64,000 bases of DNA from a virus (taxonomy: Duplodnaviria > Heunggongvirae > Uroviricota > Caudoviricetes). Made by a program: the position numbers and the translations under genes. The notes under the pieces were generated by a model. It was given only the letters and a program-made list of their open reading frames with translations, searched no databases and was not told the DNA's origin. Positions 1 through 46,500 of this stretch are shown in pieces (positions within the stretch are counted from its first letter, which is position 1; every line of letters starts with the position of its first letter). The stretch spans positions 750-64,749 of IMG/VR virus record IMGVR_UViG_2923350032_000001; one strand, 5' to 3'.

Positions 1-1553
1 ATTGCGTGATTTCCTGAATACGCATGGGATGAAGAAACGCCTGCTGATTTTCAGCCGCACTTAGTTTTTTCTCGTCAGTTTCTGTCTCTAAAGACTTAAA
101 TTGTGGCCGCACATCGTTGTAGTCTACCTTGAATTTGAGCACTTTTTCGTCACGAATCGCATCGGTAATTACATACGAATGCAATTCACGACCAAATACG
201 CTGGCGGTTGTTTCTGAGCCTAAGGCGTTTTCCGGGAAAATAGGGGTACCGGTAAAACCAAACTGATAATAGCGTTTGAATTTCTTCTTCAGGTTTTTCT
301 GCGCTTCTCCAAACTGGCTGCGGTGGCATTCATCAAATATAAACACCACTTGCTGATTGTATACAGGCAGGTCGCTTTCTGCTTTCATCAGGTTATTAAG
401 TTTCTGAATAGTGGTGACGATAATTTGTTATCGTCCTTATCCAGATTTCGTTTAAGACCTGCGGTATTTTCCGAGCCGTTGACGCTGTCTGGCGAAAAAC
501 GCTGATATTCCTTCATGGTCTGGTAATCGAGGTCTTTCCTGTCGACCACGAAGAAGACTTTATCAATAAAGTCCAGTTCAGTTGCCAGACGCGCGGCTTT
601 AAAGCTGGTCAGTGTTTTACCGGAACCGGTGGTGTGCCAGATAAAGCCACCGCTTTCCGGTTTTGACCAGTTCTTCGCTGTAAAGGAACTCTTAATTTTC
701 CACAGAATGCGCTCGGTGGCGGCAATCTGGTACGGTCGCATCACCAGTAGCGTCTGACTACTGTCAAAAACGCTGTAGTTCACCAGAACATTCAGCAGAG
801 TATGTTTCTGGAAAAAGTAGCGGTAAAGTCTTTGAGGTCTTTAATCAGCGTGTTGTCTGATTTCGCCCAGTTCATGGTGAAGTCAAAACTGTTTTTATCG
901 CGCTTTGTCGTGTTGGCAAAATAACGGGTATCGGTGCCGTTAGAAATGACAAACAGTTGCAGATACTTAAACAGGGAATTTTCGCTGTTAAAACTCTCTT
1001 TACTGTAACGATGTATCTGGTTGAAAGCCTCACGAATCGCCACGCCGCGCTTTTTCAGTTCGATTTGCACCAGCGGCAAGCCATTAACCAGGATCGTGAC
1101 GTCATAACGGTTAGCGTGAGAGCCTGCCTGTTCAAATTGCTGGATAATCTGCACCTTATTGCGCATGAGATTCTTTTTATCTATCAAATAGATGTTCTCA
1201 AGTCGCTCGTCATCAAAAATAAAGTCGCAAATATAGTCGATATGGATTTTACGGGTCTTATCCAGAATGCCATCGCTCGGGTTGTCCAGATACTGCTCCG
1301 TGAAACGCCGCCATTCGCTGTCATTAAACACCACACCATTGAGGCTCTGAAGCTGTTCCCGAACATTGGCCAGCATCTCTGACTGAGATTTTACGGCTAT
1401 AAATTCATAGCCCTGATTTTGCAGGTCCTGAATCAGTTCACGTTCCAGGTCCGATTCGCTCTGGTAGCTGTCGCCTGTTGGTTCAGCTTTGATGTACTTA
1501 TCAAGAATGATAAAGTTATTGGATTCAGCAATGGTGTGTGTCTGATGAGTCAT
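1..1553 (-). pseudogene. hsdR: Type I restriction enzyme R subunit (HsdR), N-terminal nuclease domain plus helicase motifs I (GSGKT) and II (DECH); runs off window start; frame broken at two homopolymer runs
   Basis: ORFs 792-1553 and 388-783 plus unlisted frame 1-387 translate to contiguous HsdR-like sequence ([24 protein letters not shown]) only if single-base shifts near 811-815 and 413-420 are allowed. Confidence 0.7.
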
Positions 1554-1674
1554 AGCGCATCCTTTGTGCCGTTTGGCAAGGGCCGGAAGGGGGTTAATGG
1601 TGACTTCCAGCGTGTAAAAAATGGTCTATATACTGACCGGATGTTAAGGTGATCCGGTCGGTAGCAATGGTCAA

Positions 1675-2805
1675 TTAATTACTGACAGTTTCAGGTTTCG
1701 GGAAACTGAACAGTAAATCACGGTAGTATTCGTATTGTTTCTGGCGCAACTCGATTTCACGCGGGAGACCTTCAGTGATGGAGTTGGTCAGGGTGTCGAA
1801 TTTATCGAGTATTTCGACAATGCGAGCTTGTTCTTCTGAAGGTGGTACAGGTATTGGGAATTTTAAAAACATTGGTCGACGAAGTGAGGTAACCGATGAA
1901 CTTACTGATGCTTTTTGAATATAGGTAAAAAAATATGCTGTTATATAGTGATATACAAATCGCGGATTCATAAATGCATTTGGGACAATACGATATGCTC
2001 TCTGATGCAAAGCATATTTACCTTTAGCATAATGAAATACCTTCCCCACCCCGGCGCCATCTCCAGCCGTAATGATTGCTGTTTCATCAAAATCAAATAC
2101 ATTTAACTTTAATGGTTCACGTCCACGTGCATAAAAAATATATTTGCCATGTTCTATAGCATCTTGCGTATCATGGTTACCTGTTCCTATAACAGCCACT
2201 TCCCCCAAAGTCTTCCACTCAACCTCACCCTCTTTAAAACTCAACAACTGGTCGCGATAGTAATTGTACTGTTTTTTACGCATGTTAAGCTCAGCGGTAA
2301 GCTCAGCGGTAAGTGCAGTAAATTTATCCAGAATCCGAACGATTTCAGACTGGATGGCAAGGGATTTTTCTGGGGTATCCGGGCAGGGGATTGGTATCAA
2401 AATAGGTGATACATCACGTGGATAAACATGCGGAACACCACCACCACTCTTAAACTCATGGAGTTGTTGTTGCATATTCATCAAAAAATGATAGCAATAT
2501 CGTGGTAACAAAATATTATGAGGTTTTACAGTAAATGCATCCGATACGAAAATTGGTTCCTCCCACCAACTAACGAATCCCGCATACGCACCAGAACCTG
2601 CGATAACAATTGTTTGTCCGTCGCGATTACTAGTATTATGATAATAAGCTGGTGTACGTCCGCCAGCGACTACGGGGATGGTTCCATCAATAACATCTTT
2701 TTTTGTAATTGATGTGCCTCGCTTTAGTTCAGCTATACTGCCTAGTGTTTTCCACTCAACCTCAACCCCATCCAGCAATTTTTCCAGATAACTCATCTCG
2801 CTCAT
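1675..2805 (-). CDS. hsdS: Type I RM specificity subunit HsdS
   Basis: 376-aa ORF between hsdM and hsdR with two TRD-like halves and central conserved TAEL-TAEL repeat; overlaps hsdM stop. Confidence 0.9.
2289..2312. repeat. two tandem 12-bp units (GCTCAGCGGTAA) encoding TAEL-TAEL in the hsdS central region
   Basis: direct repeat read in sequence; a degenerate third unit follows. Confidence 0.8.
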
Positions 2806-4364
2806 TTCTGCACCTCGCAGCCTTCAATTTCAGCCACAATCGCATCAATATCTTTGCGCAACTGGTCGATTTTGCTGACCGTGATTTTCAGCTCTGCATT
2901 CAACTCAGCGATATCGATAATTTCGCGAGTATCTTTCGCTTCAACATAGCTGCTCACCGACAGGTTATAGTCATTAGCGACAACGGCTTCAAACGCGACA
3001 GATTTCGCCAGATGGGCAACATCTTCCTTGCTGGCAAATACCTGCATAATCTGTTCGATATGAGCATCGGTCAGAATGTTGTTGTTAGTCTCTTTTTTGA
3101 ACAGTTCGCTGGCATCAATAAACTGAACTTTGGTATCCGTTTTATGTTTAGACAGCACCAGAATATTGACGGCAATAGTGGTGCCAAAGAACAGATTCGG
3201 TGCCAGTGAAATCACGGTTTCGACATAGTTATTATCAACCAGATACTGACGGATTTTCTGCTCCGCGCCGCCACGGTAAAAAATACCCGGGAAGCAAACA
3301 ATCGCAGCACGACCTTTGGCAGAAAGATAGTTCAGCGCATGTAGTACAAAGGCGAAGTCAGCTTTTGATTTGGGGGCCAGAACGCCAGCCGGGGCAAAAC
3401 GCTCATCGTTAATCAGAGTCGGGTCATCGCTGCCAATCCATTTCACCGAATACGGCGGGTTAGAAACGATGGCATCAAACGGTTTTTCATCTCTGAAGTG
3501 CGGTTCAGTCAGCGTATTGCCCAGCTTGATATCAAACTTGTCGTAGTTGATGTTGTGCAAAAACATGTTCATACGCGCCAGGTTATAGGTCGTATGGTTG
3601 ATTTCCTGACCAAAAAAACCTTCTTCGATGATATGGTCATCAAACTGTTTTTTAGCCTGCAACAACAGCGAACCGGAGCCTGCTGCCGGGTCGTAGATTT
3701 TGTTAACGTGGGTCTGCCCGTGCATAGCCAGTTGTGCAATCAGCTTAGAGACGTGCTGCGGTGTAAAGAACTCGCCGCCTGACTTACCGGCATTCGCCGC
3801 ATAGTTAGAAATCAGGAACTCATAGGCGTCACCGAACAGGTCAATCTGATGTTCGTGGAAGTCACCAAGTTTTAGCCCTTCAACCCCTTTCAGAACTGCA
3901 GCCAGGCGGGCATTTTTATCTTTAACGGTGTTACCCAGGCGGTTACTGGTAGTATCGAAATCAGCAAACAAACCTTTGATGTCAGCTTCTGAAGGGTAAC
4001 CGTAAGCAGAACTTTCGATAGCAACGAAGATGCTGTTTAAATCCGCATTCAGTCTGTCATTGGTATTTGCTTTCGCAGCTACGTTGCAGAAAAGCTGACT
4101 GGGGTAGATGAAGTAACCTTTGGTTTTGATGGCATCGTCTTTAATGTCATCAGTAATTACGCTGTCATCCAGTTTCGCATAACAGATACTGTCATCACCG
4201 GCTTCAATATAGCTGGAAAAATTTTCGCTGATAAAACGGTAAAAAAGCGCGCCCAAAACGTACTGCTTAAAATCCCATCCATCGACTGAACCCCTGACAT
4301 CGTTAGCAATTTGCCAGATTTGACGATGAAGCTCTGCACGTTGTTGAATACTTGTCATTTTCAT
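2802..4364 (-). CDS. hsdM: Type I RM N6-adenine DNA methyltransferase HsdM
   Basis: 520-aa ORF with NPPY catalytic motif ([10 protein letters not shown]) and AdoMet-binding region ([10 protein letters not shown]). Confidence 0.92.
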
Positions 4365-4540
4365 CCACTTATTTCAGGTTTATGTAATTGGCGGTGATTC
4401 TACAGCAACTTGGATGCTTTAGCAGTTCGGACATTAGGCTACGAATGACCTGCCTAGAGGTTTGTTAAGCCGCAAAGTGCTGGTGCTTTATGTCTGTGAA
4501 GTTTATAATTGTGTACACATAACGAGTACACGAGGTGTTT

Positions 4541-4762
4541 ATGCAATCCATTAACTTCCGTACCGCGCGCGGCAACCTTTCTGAAGTGCTCAACAATGTT
4601 GAGGCCGGGGAAGAGGTTGAAATCACCCGCAGAGGCCGTGAGCCAGCAGTAATTGTCAGCAAGGCTACTTTCGAAGCCTACAAAAAAGCGGCGCTGGATG
4701 CTGAATTTGCATCCCTGTTTGACACCCTGGACTCCACCAACAAGGAACTGGTTAACCGATAA
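4541..4762 (+). CDS. phd: Phd antitoxin (prevent host death)
   Basis: 73-aa product [32 protein letters not shown]... recognised as P1 Phd; stop overlaps doc start. Confidence 0.95.
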
Positions 4763-5142
4763 TGAGGCATATATCACCGGAAGAACTTATTGCGCTTCAT
4801 GATGCGAATATAAACCGCTACGGCGGCCTGCCGGGAATGTCTGATCCGGGTAGGGCAGAGGCCATTATCGGGAGAGTTCAGGCCAGAGTTGCCTACGAAG
4901 AGATCACCGACCTTTTCGAAGTCTCCGCCACCTACCTGGTGGCTACAGCGAGAGGGCATATATTCAATGATGCCAATAAGCGTACCGCGCTAAACAGTGC
5001 GCTGTTATTTCTACGCCGTAACGGGGTGCAGGTATTTGATTCACCTGAACTGGCAGACCTTACCGTAGGGGCTGCGACCGGAGAGATATCTGTATCTTCT
5101 GTCGCCGCCACGTTACGTAGATTGTATGGTTCTGCGGAGTAG
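4762..5142 (+). CDS. doc: Doc toxin (death on curing, Fic-fold kinase)
   Basis: 126-aa product [25 protein letters not shown]... recognised as P1 Doc. Confidence 0.95.
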
Positions 5143-5146
5143 ATTA

Positions 5147-5326
5147 ATGGCACGCAAATACAACAAATTGTCCCGTGAAGCGTTAAAGATGCTTCTTGAT
5201 GGCGTGAGTCGCCGCAAGGTAAAGCAATACCTGGTTGGTAAGCAAATTGGTGCTAGGACCGCTATTGCTGTGTTATGCCGTCAGGAAATGGTTGTGCTTA
5301 AACAGAGAATGCCGGGCAGCAGATAA
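5147..5326 (+). CDS. hypothetical small basic protein downstream of doc
   Basis: ORF 5126-5326, internal ATG at 5147; position matches the P1 post-doc region. Confidence 0.25.
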   Translation: MARKYNKLSREALKMLLDGVSRRKVKQYLVGKQIGARTAIAVLCRQEMVVLKQRMPGSR

Positions 5327-5353
5327 AGCCCAATCAGTGATGAAAGGTGTGAT

Positions 5354-6397
5354 GTGAAAGCCATTATTACTCCCTTTGTACAAAAAGAGCTTGGCGTCGC
5401 CACATTCAAAGTGGATCAGGAAGTCAGAAAGCTGGTGGAGGCTGGCCGTAAATTTATTATGGAGCCGGTGCCGCGTGAGTTAATCGAGCACATGGACGAC
5501 GGCCTCGTTGTTTCCGAGCAAACTATGGCAACAAATGAGGCGTTGCAGCCGTTTTTTAACAGCGATGAACTGTTTCGCCGTATTGGTGGAATTGACTCGC
5601 TGGTGGCGTGGTTGCGCAGGAAAGAGGGGCAATGCCAGGCCGCAGATCGTAGTTGGTGTGACAACCATATTGTCCACGCTAAACGAGACAATAGCGCGGT
5701 GTTGCTGTGCTGGCATCACGATAACCATTACCGGATGCGTGGTTTTAATGAGCTGAAAGAAACGCTGCATAATAATCGCGTTAACTGGATACTGGATGTC
5801 GCCCGTCAGGAAATGGGCCTTTCAAATAGCCATGATTTAAGTATTCAGGAGCTGTGCTGGTGGGCTTTCATGCGCAACATGATGCACCTGATGCCGGAAG
5901 AAGTCTGCCGCATATCAATAAATAAGATGAAGGCTGCTCCGCAGGATAGCGGACCTTTGAAAGAGGCGGATATTCGCCCGTATGACGATCGTGCTACAGC
6001 ATATGTTCAGATGATGGAAGAACGCGCCGCGCCGATGCGTGCAAAAGTATGCCCTGTGGATGTTGACTCCGACCCTGGCACGGCGCATTTCAAAATACCA
6101 AAACTGCAATCGCTAAAATTACCCGAGTACATGGACTTTGTTGCTTCCCGTCCGTGCTGTGGATGTGGAGCTGCGGGAGCTGGCGCTCGCATTACGCCTT
6201 ATATCGTTCGTCATAGTCGATTATGCGCGCATGACATTTACGCAATTCCTCTGTGCCAGTCATGCCAGCGTGATATTGAGCGTGACCGCGATAATTGGGA
6301 GAAGACGCACGGCAGGCTGGCGATGCATCAACGATTGTTCTTTGATTACGCGCTTGGAGTCGGCGCTATCACAAGTCACTCGTCGAGCGTTAGATAA
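5354..6397 (+). CDS. hypothetical protein, post-doc region, Cys-rich C-terminus
   Basis: 347-aa ORF with GTG start; position equivalent to pdcB in P1 gene order. Confidence 0.5.
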
Positions 6398-19300: not shown

Positions 19301-19405
19301 AACCTGACGGCGGCGAATCACAAGCGTCCGGTTTGACGCTGGTTTCGGTCGCAGTGCTGGCCCGCGCCTGGAAGCGCTGATAGCACTCCAGCCCGCAGAA
19401 ATGCT

Positions 19406-19683
19406 GGCACTGTTGCAAATAGTCGGTGGTGATAAACTTATCATCCCCTTTTGCTGATGGAGCTGCACATGAACCCATTCAAAGGCCGGCATTTTCAGCG
19501 TGACATCATTCTGTGGGCCGTACGCTGGTACTGCAAATACGGCATCAGTTACCGTGAGCTGCAGGAGATGCTGGCTGAACGCGGAGTGAATGTCGATCAC
19601 TCCACGATTTACCGCTGGGTTCAGCGTTATGCGCCTGAAATGGAAAAACGGCTGCGCTGGTACTGGCGTAACCCTTCCGATCT
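19406..19683 (+). mobile_element. partial IS26 (left IR and first 70 or so codons of tnp26), abutting a complete inverted IS26
   Basis: IR GGCACTGTTGCAAA at 19406; Tnp26 N-terminus [18 protein letters not shown]...; ends at the IR of the next copy. Confidence 0.85.
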
Positions 19684-20503
19684 GGCACTGTTGCAAAGTT
19701 AGCGATGAGGCAGCCTTTTGTCTTATTCAAAGGCCTTACATTTCAAAAACTCTGCTTACCAGGCGCATTTCGCCCAGGGGATCACCATAATAAAATGCTG
19801 AGGCCTGGCCTTTGCGTAGTGCACGCATCACCTCAATACCTTTGATGGTGGCGTAAGCCGTCTTCATGGATTTAAATCCCAGCGTGGCGTTGATTATCCG
19901 TTTCAGTTTGCCATGATCGCATTCAATCACGTTGTTCCGGTACTTAATCTGTCGGTGTTCAACGTCAGACGGGCACCGGCCTTCGCGTTTGAGCAGAGCA
20001 AGCGCGCGACCATAGGCGGGCGCTTTATCCGTGTTGATGAATCGTGGGATCTGCCACTTCTTCACGTTGTTGAGGATTTTACCCAGAAACCGGTATGCAG
20101 CTTTGCTGTTACGACGGGAGGAGAGATAAAAATCGACAGTGCGGCCCCGGCTGTCGACGGCCCGGTACAGATACGCCCAGCGGCCATTGACCTTCACGTA
20201 GGTTTCATCCATGTGCCACGGGCAAAGATCGGAAGGGTTACGCCAGTACCAGCGCAGCCGTTTTTCCATTTCAGGCGCATAACGCTGAACCCAGCGGTAA
20301 ATCGTGGAGTGATCGACATTCACTCCGCGTTCAGCCAGCATCTCCTGCAGCTCACGGTAACTGATGCCGTATTTGCAGTACCAGCGTACGGCCCACAGAA
20401 TGATGTCACGCTGAAAATGCCGGCCTTTGAATGGGTTCATGTGCAGCTCCATCAGCAAAAGGGGATGATAAGTTTATCACCACCGACTATTTGCAACAGT
20501 GCC
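19684..20503 (-). mobile_element. IS26 (complete, 820 bp)
   Basis: 14-bp terminal IRs GGCACTGTTGCAAA at 19684 and its complement ending at 20503. Confidence 0.95.
19736..20440 (-). CDS. tnpA: IS26 transposase Tnp26
   Basis: 234-aa DDE transposase [54 protein letters not shown]... Confidence 0.95.
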   Translation of the reverse strand: MNPFKGRHFQRDIILWAVRWYCKYGISYRELQEMLAERGVNVDHSTIYRWVQRYAPEMEKRLRWYWRNPSDLCPWHMDETYVKVNGRWAYLYRAVDSRGRTVDFYLSSRRNSKAAYRFLGKILNNVKKWQIPRFINTDKAPAYGRALALLKREGRCPSDVEHRQIKYRNNVIECDHGKLKRIINATLGFKSMKTAYATIKGIEVMRALRKGQASAFYYGDPLGEMRLVSRVFEM

Positions 20504-20517
20504 CCATATCAGCCCCC

Positions 20518-21108
<591 letters not shown>

Positions 21109-21214
21109 TTAACTGATTCTACGAGATGTCATTTGTCCATTGTGCCAACTGTTATTATGGATATCGTAATTCGTACGAATCGCGCTGTTACAGGATGTAT
21201 AGCAACCTTAATAA

Positions 21215-22447
21215 TTATTTGAATATATCGGTTATAGTTGGGTAATTATACATCTTAAGCTTATCTCTAAATTTCATAGAAAATATAGGGTCTACCTTAC
21301 ATCTCTGTGAGAGCTTTGCAAGCCTTAGCTCCCTCTCTTTCATAATATCTTTGTATTCTCTATCAATACTCTCCTGAATTTGCTGATTCTCAACAGGAGA
21401 CGGTTTTGTAATTTTATCCCATTGATAAGTTGGATTCTCAGTGTAATTTAAATCATCATTTTGAAGTAATTTCTCAAGATGAGACATAGCATTTTCATAT
21501 AGCATTCTATCTTGGGGCAACATACTTGCAACACGCACTTCGCTTTCAATTTCCGATACTATCATTTCAAGTTGACGTTTTTCCATCGCTATAGCTACAC
21601 GGAATGGAAACAGGGCTTCTTGCTTAATCATTTGACAATTCACATTATTGTTTATGTCACTAAGTAATTTTACAAATGAGAACTTCGCTAAAGGCTGCTG
21701 ATTTATGACACTCTGTCTAACTGGCATTGTGTAGCTCGGTGTTTTTTCAAGTGTTTTCTTCACTTGCTCTATAGCAACATTAGGAGTTTTGAGAACAGTC
21801 TTTGCTGGAATACGTAGCACCATAAACCCCTCCTTTATTGAATATTCATCACGAATACGATCTCGCTCTATTTGTTCAGGGGATGAATGCCATGCTGCAC
21901 CATCAATTTCTATAATTTGGCGTCCATTTACGACAAAATCAAAACGATAACGCTTATAGGGCACTTGCATTTCAAGCACTAAGTCAGGAGAAACTAACAT
22001 TCCAGATTTAGGTTTAAGATTAAACTCTGCAACCATTTTACGAAGAAATGCCTCCTCAGCCGGAGATTCGCAACCTTTGCAAAATATATCAAGCCAGTTT
22101 TCTGCGTCAGCGTCAACAGTTTGCCACCATGCTAACAGTCCGCGTCGGTGTCCATATAATCGTTCATCTGACGGTTTTGTTAATGGCTTTGTTAACGGTT
22201 TAATTAAGGGTTCATTTAACGGCTTATTTAACGGATTTAATAACGATTCATTTAATGGTTTGATTGACGGTCTATTTGACGACTCAATCGGTGGTTTAGA
22301 TGATGATTTGTTTTTTTTATCAAAACCTACGATAGTTATATATGCTACATATAGCATCATGCCTGCAACAGGCCATACACATGGATAAATCACGTAACAC
22401 AACAGTAATAGAACAATAGTCCCAAAAAATGTTAACTTCTTCCGCAT
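21215..22447 (-). CDS. membrane-anchored protein with DUF559/Vsr-like (PD-(D/E)xK-type) endonuclease-like domain
   Basis: 410-aa ORF in an AT-rich segment: two N-terminal hydrophobic helices, proline-rich KPLxx repeats, then RFDFVVNGRQIIEIDGAAWHSSPEQIERDRIRDEYSIKEGFMVLRI, then an unassigned C-terminal domain. Confidence 0.6.
   Translation of the reverse strand: MRKKLTFFGTIVLLLLCYVIYPCVWPVAGMMLYVAYITIVGFDKKNKSSSKPPIESSNRPSIKPLNESLLNPLNKPLNEPLIKPLTKPLTKPSDERLYGHRRGLLAWWQTVDADAENWLDIFCKGCESPAEEAFLRKMVAEFNLKPKSGMLVSPDLVLEMQVPYKRYRFDFVVNGRQIIEIDGAAWHSSPEQIERDRIRDEYSIKEGFMVLRIPAKTVLKTPNVAIEQVKKTLEKTPSYTMPVRQSVINQQPLAKFSFVKLLSDINNNVNCQMIKQEALFPFRVAIAMEKRQLEMIVSEIESEVRVASMLPQDRMLYENAMSHLEKLLQNDDLNYTENPTYQWDKITKPSPVENQQIQESIDREYKDIMKERELRLAKLSQRCKVDPIFSMKFRDKLKMYNYPTITDIFK
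22168..22300. repeat. tandem 15-nt repeats encoding the proline-rich KPLxx linker of ORF 21215-22447
   Basis: ttaa(c/t)ggNtt(g/a)tt-type units read in sequence. Confidence 0.6.
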
Positions 22448-22499: not shown

Positions 22500-22891
22500 G
22501 CCCGAAATAAAAGATGACCAACACCAACGGAAATAACACTCTAAAGCTCCACCGCCAGCACCACCAGCACCACCAGCACCACCAGCACCACCAGCACCAC
22601 CAGCAACTGCACCCAAGGTAGAAGTTCCTTTAATATTATATCCAGTAACACTACCAGCTACTGCACCGAGAACAGCACCGAAAGTCTGAGCTGCTTATTT
22701 ATTAGCTGTATTATCAACTTTTACTTTGGCTGGGAGAACAGAGATTATATTTACTACTCTTGTTTTGAATTAAGTTGGGCTGTGTCGTACACATCTGCCG
22801 CATATTCAGCACCATTAGACTGACACCCTGAGAGAAAAATTGCAGAAACAACCATGACGCATAAAGAAGAAATTTTAGCCATTAGAATCAT
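22500..22891 (-). pseudogene. possible disrupted glycine-zipper lipoprotein gene (lipobox signal peptide, then out-of-frame Gly/Ala-rich segment)
   Basis: MAKISSLCVMVVSAIFLSGC lipobox ORF stops at 22754; an adjacent frame encodes AAQTFGAVLGAVAGSVTGY...GAGGAGGAGG without a start codon. Confidence 0.3.
22548..22614. repeat. tandem hexanucleotide repeat (CACCAG/GCACCA), about 10 units
   Basis: ccaccagcaccaccagcacc... read in sequence; encodes a Gly-Ala run on the minus strand. Confidence 0.85.
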
Positions 22892-42258: not shown

Positions 42259-42330
42259 TGTTTTTTTATATCGTGTTTTCGGTACCATTCAGGCATCGCC
42301 CTTCAATGGGCATTAGTTAGGAGTCGTCAG

Positions 42331-43513: not shown

Positions 43514-46500
43514 AAGAGCTGTGCTATGGATCTGTTTGCAGTGGAATTGAAGCCGCGAGTATTGCCTGGGAACCGTTGGGTATGCGTCCGGTTTGGTTTG
43601 CTGAAATCGAGCCTTTTCCATCGGCCGTTCTTGCGCTCCGCTGGCCCCATGTCGCCAACCTTGGCGACATGACAAAACTTGCCAAAAAAGTCTTGGCTGG
43701 GGAAATCGAATCCCCTGACGTGCTCGTCGGGGGAACACCATGTTTTACCGCGGGGCATATGGTTCTTTGTAAAAATGGTTATAAACCAATAGAAGATATT
43801 TGCCCTGGCGATTACGTAGTCAGTCATCTCGGGCGGTTACAACAAGTAAAAAGAGTTGGTTCAAAAATAGCTAATACGGGGTTACTTAATGCCGTTGGGC
43901 AGCCTTTAGGTATAAGAACAACCAATGACCATCCCTTCCTGGCGGTTCGGTGGAAAGCCCAAAACACCCGGAAAAATGGCACATATTTTAAGAGAGAGTT
44001 GTTGTCTGAACCGGAATGGCGAGCAGCATGTGATATGCCGGGATATCAATGGTGCGCTCTAACTAATTTCAATATTGCATCTCCAGATATTTGTTCTCGG
44101 TTCTTGTCTGAAGAACAGGCTATGTATCTTGCGGGCGCTTATGTTGGCGATGGATATATTAGGAGATGGAGAGGTAAATCTAAGAAGGCGGTTGTTTTTG
44201 GCATAAATTGCCAGAAATTGAGAAAGTTTCATTGCCGCATACCAGAAAACATATTTTCCGTGGCAAGCGAAATCCGAGGGAGCATCAAAGTAACCTTGAA
44301 TGATACGTGTTATGCCAATTGGCTTAATGAACATTTTGGCGAGTTAAGCCATGCTAAGCGTATCCCTGCATGGGTGATGTCGCATCCATTGCGTCATGTG
44401 TTTTTACAAGGCTATCTTGATACTGATGGGACACCAAGTGGTAAAGCGGGATTTAGAATTAATAGTGTTAGTCCTGCGCTTGCTTGGGGCGTTGCGGGGT
44501 TGTCACAGACTTGTGGTTATGTTTCTTCGGTCAGCTTTATTGAAGTTGAGCCCAAAAAAGTGATCGAGGATCGCGTGGTAAATCAACGGAATTATTATCA
44601 GGTAACAATCTGCCCGCAGAAATTGTCACGTAAATCAAGATTGGCTCATGGAATGCTTTTACGAACAGTCAAAGAGTTTAAATCGGTAGGCCTAGATACT
44701 GTATACAACATAGAAGTCGAAGGTGATCATTCCTATATCCTCAATGGTGCGGTGGTCCATAACTGTCAGGCATTCAGTATCGCGGGCTTACGTGGTGGGC
44801 TTGATGATGAACGCGGCGCGCTAACTTTGAAGTATGTGGAGCTTGCAAATGCAATTGACGACAAACGGTCTGAGTCCTTCCTCAAACCGACAGTTATCGT
44901 CTGGGAAAATGTCCCAGGAGTCCTGTCATCGGCAGATAACGCCTTCGGATGTTTCCTTGCCGGATTGGCTGGAGAAGATGCGCCATTTGAACCAGGTGAT
45001 CGACCTGAATCAGGAAAAAGTAACGCGTTCTGGCGGTGGGATGGCAAAACCGGTTGCCATGCTCCAAAGTGGCCGCAGTGTGGTTGTATTTATGGACCGC
45101 AGCGAAAGGTGGCCTGGAGAATCCTTGATGCCCAATACTTCGGAGTGGCACAACGACGCCGACGCGTGTTTGTTGTCGCAAGTGCTCGAACAGACCTCGA
45201 TCCCGCAACGGTACTTTTTGAGTTCGAAGGCGAGCGCCGGGATATTGCGCCGAGCAGAGGCGAGGGGAAGGAAACTACCAGATATACTTCAAACATCGCT
45301 ATCAGATCTTGCGATGATACAAACATAATTGCCATGGCACATGGGCAAGGAGGGGCTGAGATAAAAACCGATAATTCGGCACCAACTTTGACATGTAACC
45401 ATGAAGCACCAATTGTATTGCTCGGCGACGATAGAATGCGCCGTCTTACCCCTGTCGAATGTGAAAGGCTGCAAGGTTTTCCTGATTGGCATACGTTGAT
45501 CCCTACGGGAAAGCGTAAAAAAGTTTCTTCAGATGAACTGGCATACCTTCGCAATAACTATCCTGATTTAAACGAAGAAGAGGCCGCGATGCTTGCAGCT
45601 GACGGACCGCGTTACAAAGCGATCGGAAATAGTATGGCAATACCAGTAATGCGCTGGATTGGCGATCGGATTACTAAGGCTGCATGTCGGCAAAAAGAAG
45701 GGAGTGAAACAAAAGAGCGAAAGGTTAAACCAGCGGCAGAATTCGAACGGCCCATATTCAAATGGGCTGGTGGAAAATTTGGTGTTCTGGAACAAATCTT
45801 TCGCTATTTGCCAGAAGGGAAGCGCCTGATTGAACCTTTCGTTGGTGGCGGAGCTGTCTTCATGAATGCCGGATATCAGGAAAATCTGCTAAATGATGTG
45901 AATGCTGACCTGATTAACTTTTACAAGACTCTGCAACGTGAGGCGCATTCACTTATCACTCTGGCACATCGTTTCTTCCTGTACTACAACACCCAGGAGG
46001 GATTCCTGGCAGTACGGAATGCGTTTAACAAACAAGTCTATGATGATTTACATCGCGCAGCGGCGTTTTTGTTCCTGAACCGACATTGTTTTAATGGATT
46101 GACGCGCTACAACCAGGCCGGTGAGTTCAATGTCGGGTATGGGAAGTATAAGTCTACGCATTTTCCATTACAGGAGATGGAAGCCTTCCTCGGTGCGGAA
46201 GGGCGGTCTGAGTTTGTATGCGGTGATTTTGCAGCGGTGATTGAAGCTGCCGGAGAAGGAGATGTCATCTTTTGCGATCCGCCGTATGAACCGCTCCCCA
46301 ATACAGAGGGGTTCACGAACTATTCCGGTCATGACTTTAAGTTTGAAGAGCAAAAACGCCTGGTGTCTCTGTTGACGGATGCTCATCGCCGAGGTGCAAA
46401 GGTTCTCATTACTAACAGTGGCGCGCCAAACATCAGAGAACTTTATCAGGACAGTGGCTTCAGAGTGGAACCTCTTTTTGCCAGACGTTCTGTGTCTTGT

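Follow-up and report, generated by a model that had tools for sequence, protein, structure and literature searches.

The closest described relatives of the locus considered here are the type IC restriction-modification systems EcoR124I and EcoR124II, and the structures compared below are those of EcoR124I HsdR (PDB 2W00) and of the EcoR124 holoenzyme (7BST). The copy number of a 12-bp repeat in hsdS alters the spacer length of the recognition site. The gene order hsdM-hsdS-hsdR of EcoR124I and EcoR124II is also that of the window (the whole stretch of DNA that was analysed, 64,000 bases of a 64,749-base record), in which all three genes lie on the minus strand (Table 1). Its sequence marks the locus as an ordinary hsdM-hsdS-hsdR cassette of the EcoR124 (type IC) family, probably with a specificity of its own; every feature of the family that can be tested in sequence was found, except hsdR as one open reading frame. 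Unlike that of EcoR124I, hsdR is spread over three frames, and this is so in this one record.

Table 1. Features of the hsd locus and of the two deletion sites (window coordinates)
Feature	Position	Strand	Remarks
hsdR fragment A	792..1553	-	ARM82040.1, 253 aa; Pfam HSDR_N 1.4e-49
Deletion site 1	817..818	-	alignment with relatives
hsdR segment B	427..816	-	second frame; Pfam ResIII/SWI2_SNF2
Deletion site 2	424..426	-	alignment with relatives
hsdR segment C	1..423	-	third frame
hsdR C-terminal piece	63189..64000	-	residues 770-1038 and stop; identical to pL9-1
hsdS	1675..2805	-	376 aa, intact
hsdM	2802..4364	-	520 aa, intact

The nearest relative of the window is the E. coli plasmid pL9-1 (NZ_CP142045.1; IncY, 133,989 bp). 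Its HsdR (1038 aa) was aligned with EcoR124I HsdR over residues 1-1038 (2294 bits, about 98% identity), a score at which the resemblance is not due to chance. Seven differences from EcoR124I HsdR fall within residues 1-401, and the nuclease motif (D151/E165/K167), the Walker A motif (310-314, with K313) and the DECH motif (408) occupy the same positions as in EcoR124I HsdR. The Pfam domains HSDR_N, SWI2_SNF2/ResIII, a T1R_D3-like domain and EcoR124_C were found in the intact sister protein or the repaired HsdR. HsdM (520 aa), which gives a Pfam N6_Mtase match of 2.7e-121 and has the NPPY motif at residue 302, is nearly identical to the M subunit of EcoR124 (1152 bits). HsdS has the N-terminal, central and C-terminal conserved regions in common with EcoR124 HsdS (chain 7BST_A); its central region, TAELTAEL, consists of two repeats as in EcoR124I and aligns to 7BST_A. 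Both target-recognition domains have diverged from those of EcoR124, so that a different DNA specificity is expected. At the nucleotide level, the EcoR124-type 12-bp repeat was present in two copies (encoding TAELTAEL) at about 2290-2313. Note that the hsdS of pYLPI7b, a more distant relative, is only of half length (627 nt; positions 2300-2926 of locus L002). The hsdM and hsdS genes overlap by 4 bp, and the hsdR start codon follows hsdS after a 121-bp gap, in which no sigma-70-like site was found by a consensus scan.

Beyond hsdM, phd/doc (4535-5142) and then lpa and pacA/pacB were found; their presence alongside the cassette identifies the backbone as that of a P1-like phage-plasmid. The cassette thus adjoins phd/doc on a P1-like IncY plasmid, whereas the EcoR124 cassette is carried by the IncFIV plasmid R124. 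P1-like plasmids often have such a cassette beside phd/doc: matches at a coverage of at least 80% were obtained for more than 850 plasmid records. An hsdMSR cassette with a 100% identical HsdS was also observed in another context (loci L008, L009, L012 and L015), together with genes for a dynamin-like GTPase and a patatin and with IS66/IS5-type elements, and the cassette seems to be mobile between P1-like plasmids and other replicons or islands. In a BLAST search with the whole window, two sister plasmids, pL9-1 and pEC85-4-128k (NZ_CP158185.1), showed 99.98-100% identity over the approximately 62 kb that are shared. The hsdM and hsdS genes are identical in the window and in both sisters, and the neighbouring phd/doc, lpa, pacAB and c1 are likewise common to them. 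In hsdR the window differs from both: the gene is uninterrupted (3117 bp) in pL9-1 and pEC85-4-128k, and the window is two bases short there.

Three-frame translation of the window showed that hsdR, which begins with the ATG at 1553, changes frame twice. The first frame runs from M1 to '...DFTATF' and then reads 'SRNILC*', the stop (792-794) being six codons past the first break; the second (about 816 to 427) includes '...TTGSGKT...LDKDDNK'; and the third (about 423 to the window start) includes 'IIVTTIQKL...FDECHRSQ...' and is free of stops up to the window edge. The first break follows residue 247, where the nuclease domain ends, and the second follows residue 377, within the first RecA-like motor domain. 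Global alignment of window positions 1-1600 with pL9-1 gave exactly two differences, both of them 1-bp deletions in the window, and both gaps were also seen in the alignment with pYLPI7b (97.4% identity). At the first site, AAAAAGGTAG on the plus strand is replaced by AAAAAGTAG: one G of a GG pair is lost at 817/818, directly beside an A5 run (812-816; T5 on the coding strand), and the coding strand is changed from ACC-TTT-TTC to ACT-TTT-TC (the C of ACC, codon 246). At the second site, AATTTTGTT is replaced by AATTTGTT, a T4 run (424-427), which all relatives have, being shortened to T3 (424-426); on the coding strand AAC-AAA-ATT becomes AAC-AAA-TT, that is, AAAA becomes AAA at codons K377/I378.

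When both bases were restored, 518 stop-free codons were obtained, identical to the corresponding prefix of pL9-1 HsdR. The sequence-only reading had described the gene as an hsdR with two -1 breaks, whose N-terminal region becomes continuous after the addition of two bases, and in both respects it agrees with the alignment. Its placement of the first break near the T5 run at 811-815 was accurate to within 2-3 bases; the missing base is a C beside the run, not a T inside it, and the addition of a T to the run instead gives an identical protein. The second break, which it had assigned to an A/T run at 413-420, is likewise present, but lies 6-10 bases away, in the run at 424-426. A single uninterrupted hsdR frame, which is needed for a restriction-proficient system, is absent from the deposited sequence and was found in every relative examined; no functional HsdR can come from the sequence as written.

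Fragment A consists of native residues 1-247, with the whole PD-(D/E)xK nuclease domain (D151...E165-L-K167), followed by six out-of-frame residues (SRNILC). Segment B corresponds to native residues 248-377 and contains the Walker A motif GSGKT (K313); the mechanically defined ORF at 388-783 within this segment is ARM82039.1 (131 aa). Segment C corresponds to native residues 378-518, with the DECH (DEAH-box) motif at 408, and leaves the left end of the window without a stop. Since the source is circular, the right end of the window runs on into the left end after 749 unseen bases; this unseen segment, between window positions 64000 and 1, holds hsdR codons from about 519 to about 769. As a separate observation, the second deletion site is the loop of a perfect 8-bp hairpin, GACGATAA-CAAA(A)-TTATCGTC (window 413-433, minus strand), with a predicted stability of about -6.7 kcal/mol as DNA and a z value of about -4 against shuffled sequences. 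The hairpin is kept in the intact relatives, and it may therefore be either a local cause of miscalling or a chance feature.

The differences among the window, pL9-1 and pEC85-4-128k were sorted according to which of the three was the odd one out. In unique DNA, the private differences of the window were three single-base indels (at 427, 818 and 42267) and no substitutions, whereas the two sisters together had about six private substitutions and no indels (Fisher's exact test for the indel/substitution split, p = 0.012). In the 19.4 kb around the locus, the window differed from pL9-1 by the two 1-bp gaps and by no substitution. The sisters thus differ by substitutions and the record by 1-bp length changes in or beside short runs, which indicates that natural divergence in this lineage proceeds by substitution. 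The third private indel is a change from T6 to T7 at 42261-42267, in an intergenic position about 63 bp upstream of a small CDS (according to the pL9-1 annotation); T7 was absent from 552 plasmid records, and the change is probably one more consensus error. Slippage during replication acts preferentially on the longest runs. The runs affected here are short (2, 4 and 6 bases) despite the presence of 28 runs of 7-8 bases in the window; because longer runs were available, this is not the pattern that slippage prefers. The overall density of such differences is low (3 in 64 kb), and by eye none of the three sites was linked to a Dam (GATC) or Dcm (CCWGG) motif. Single-base length changes in or beside short runs are the known signature of long-read consensus errors: these are mainly indels of 1 bp associated with homopolymers, and their deletions usually come after runs of 2-8 bases, in most cases of 4-5 (PMC12007338). 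As in this hsdR, the long-read errors described there (Kastor) are homopolymer-associated single-base indels that break up a conserved gene into neighbouring ORFs (PMC12007338).

The position of the locus within the record was also considered. The last base of the window corresponds to position 44404 of pL9-1 and the first base to position 43653, so that the two ends are 750 bp apart on the circle. As the window comprises 64,000 bases of a 64,749-base record, it can begin only at one of record positions 1-750, and the linear ends of the record must be located within the unseen 749 bp of hsdR. The record therefore ends inside hsdR, and from the left end of the contig it is no more than 1,176 bp to one deletion and 1,567 bp to the other. 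Under uniform placement, the probability that at least two of three indels fall so close to the origin is 0.007, and the chance that an arbitrary origin falls in hsdR is 0.048. The unseen segment is 749 bp long, as compared with exactly 750 bp in all 11 of the relatives that have both anchors (11/11), which points to one more base missing at or near the junction; hsdR would then have a third 1-bp deletion, or else a base was lost at the circularisation junction. Errors, missing bases included, are described to cluster at the original start and end of circular contigs, because polishers ignore circularity (Trycycler, PMC8442456).

Other carriers of the deletions were sought by megablast among plasmids, phages and complete E. 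coli genomes, and none was found. Counting the records that cover at least 80% of window positions 380-860, the deletions were absent from 834 plasmid records and from 1,349 complete E. coli genome records; in each of the two sets the best match had 99.6% identity and both bases present. Exact 32-mers across each deletion had no match in viral, genome or metagenome contigs, and no intermediate with a single deletion was found among the records searched. The truncated products are present in the protein collection as ARM82040.1/WP_085704297.1 (253 aa, B9W17_25975) and ARM82039.1 (131 aa, B9W17_25970), and each of ARM82040.1 and ARM82039.1 is recorded on one contig only, an E. coli plasmid of 64,749 bp. 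No second assembly of the isolate was found, including by a search for contigs encoding the 253-aa or 131-aa fragments, and a literature search yielded no paper describing the plasmid or the locus. The identical HsdS protein occurs on 22 contigs, from which 10 places were fetched; nine of these reach both sites, and all nine have the intact sequence and a 1038-aa HsdR.

From these data, we infer that the EcoR124-family system is intact and that the two hsdR deletions are errors of assembly or consensus, with a probability of about 0.78. This is favoured over a methylase-only system because the deletions are private to one assembly, because the private differences are all indels (1-bp, homopolymer-associated), because the deletions are near the contig end, as deduced from the record length, and because the unseen 749-bp segment is one base short. 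Under this explanation, 1-bp deletions associated with short homopolymers would have been introduced no more than about 1.6 kb from the linear end of the circular contig, where read coverage and polishing are poorest and where bases are often lost or duplicated on circularisation. A single cause, namely poor consensus near the point at which a circular contig ends, in an assembly with occasional homopolymer indels, would then account for all of this, and hsdR in the cell would probably be a single 1038-codon gene and the system r+m+. The indel at 42267 is remote from both ends of the contig, which means that proximity to an end cannot be the whole explanation. What also counts against an artefact is that two of the three private indels are in one non-essential gene with hsdM and hsdS untouched, that an r-m+ variant would look alike, and that the loss of HsdR is often tolerated or selected; moreover, in a lineage represented by a degraded derivative of P1, the decay of a gene is plausible. 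The sequence-only reading had left the choice between an inactivated restriction subunit (a methylase-only M+S system) and homopolymer sequencing errors. That alternative was aptly drawn, and the evidence now favours sequencing or assembly error.

If they are genuine, the clustered -1 deletions (two or three) in hsdR would have left an orphan type IC methyltransferase (M2S1) with an r-m+ phenotype, accompanied at most by a free 253-aa PD-(D/E)xK nuclease-domain fragment unable to dock on the methylase; the clustering could possibly be the result of a single error-prone repair tract. This we regard as unlikely, though it deserves weight. The deposited sequence has both frameshifts in hsdR, its hsdM and hsdS being identical to those of the sisters, and the first break halts translation six codons on. 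Loss of HsdR with retention of M and S is a common and viable state, and the loss of about a third of the backbone of this defective P1-like plasmid at an IS26 junction implies that decay is under way. However, one frameshift suffices for inactivation, and in a lineage whose 64 kb show no private substitution a second, neutral hit at a distance of 391 bp is very improbable; slippage finds poor substrates in runs of 2 and 4 bases, and neither deletion was found in any other record, even singly. Genuine inactivation would call for two, perhaps three, independent -1 mutations in hsdR, and also for the coincidences that the contig origin falls in the same gene (prior about 0.048) and that another base is missing in the unseen 749 bp. 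Far less probable still, to the point of being nearly negligible, is that the breaks are regulatory, being bypassed by ribosomal or transcriptional slippage or subject to repeat-length switching as in contingency-locus R-M systems. At the first site the coding strand, ACT-TTT-TCC, would permit -1 re-pairing of tRNA-Phe on T5, giving T-F-F-Q, the native sequence, but at the second (AAC-AAA-TTA) no -1 re-pairing is possible and no slippery sequence exists, and one round of translation would have to get past both breaks. Phase variation depends on runs far longer than the 2-5 bases present here, and no length variation was seen at either site among more than 2,000 homologue records (about 830 plasmid and 1,350 E. 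coli). Thus, a programmed ribosomal frameshift was rejected, as a slippery site exists at the first site only and all homologues have the gene in one frame, and so was a phase-variable R-M gene, as the ORF has no long simple-sequence repeat and the runs are of 2 and 4 bases. An Rfam search of window positions 1-6000 gave no match, no RNA structure was found at the first site, and promoter and terminator counts were at the level of shuffled sequences and offered no regulatory explanation.

Neither assembly error nor genuine inactivation is new in kind: an intact cassette is a routine member of its family, and a real r-m+ state is a familiar kind of decay. The main relevance of the result is to data quality and annotation hygiene. 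ARM82039.1 and ARM82040.1/WP_085704297.1 ('hypothetical protein') are most likely fragments of an intact HsdR, and ARM82039.1 and ARM82040.1 should not be counted as evidence for loss of restriction, for an orphan methylase or for a new small nuclease protein. Should the deletions be real, a well-studied type IC system would have yielded a further r-m+ derivative, here on a defective phage-plasmid, which would be unsurprising, although useful for the transformation or phage biology of the strain.

Several further observations concern the plasmid as a whole. The 64.7-kb source has arisen from a P1-like IncY plasmid by deletion. Compared with pL9-1, it lacks the stretch that begins at 89.3 kb and, passing the origin, extends to 24.2 kb (sit, tail fibres, cin, lysis genes, darB, ssb and the resistance island), so that the window has neither the resistance island of the sisters nor their tail-fibre, lysis and darB region; an IS26 copy (19684-20503) is situated at the deletion junction (window 19405-21477). 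The element is probably a defective phage-plasmid that has lost particle formation. In a search for a sister plasmid sharing the IS26 deletion junction, which was swamped by IS26 matches, no record spanned it. At window positions 22570-22605, an 18-bp gain relative to pL9-1 was observed, consisting of two extra copies of the 9-bp unit CCACCAGCA; the copy number differs in pEC85-4 too, and there is no long ORF there. Use of this private gain (at 22588) as a protein-level marker by which to recognise independent assemblies from the lineage was considered and rejected, there being no usable ORF. An IS91-family element is present at 57243-58938, where the site is uninterrupted in pL9-1; related IS91-family copies are found elsewhere in pL9-1 and pEC85-4, which indicates active IS movement among the sister plasmids.
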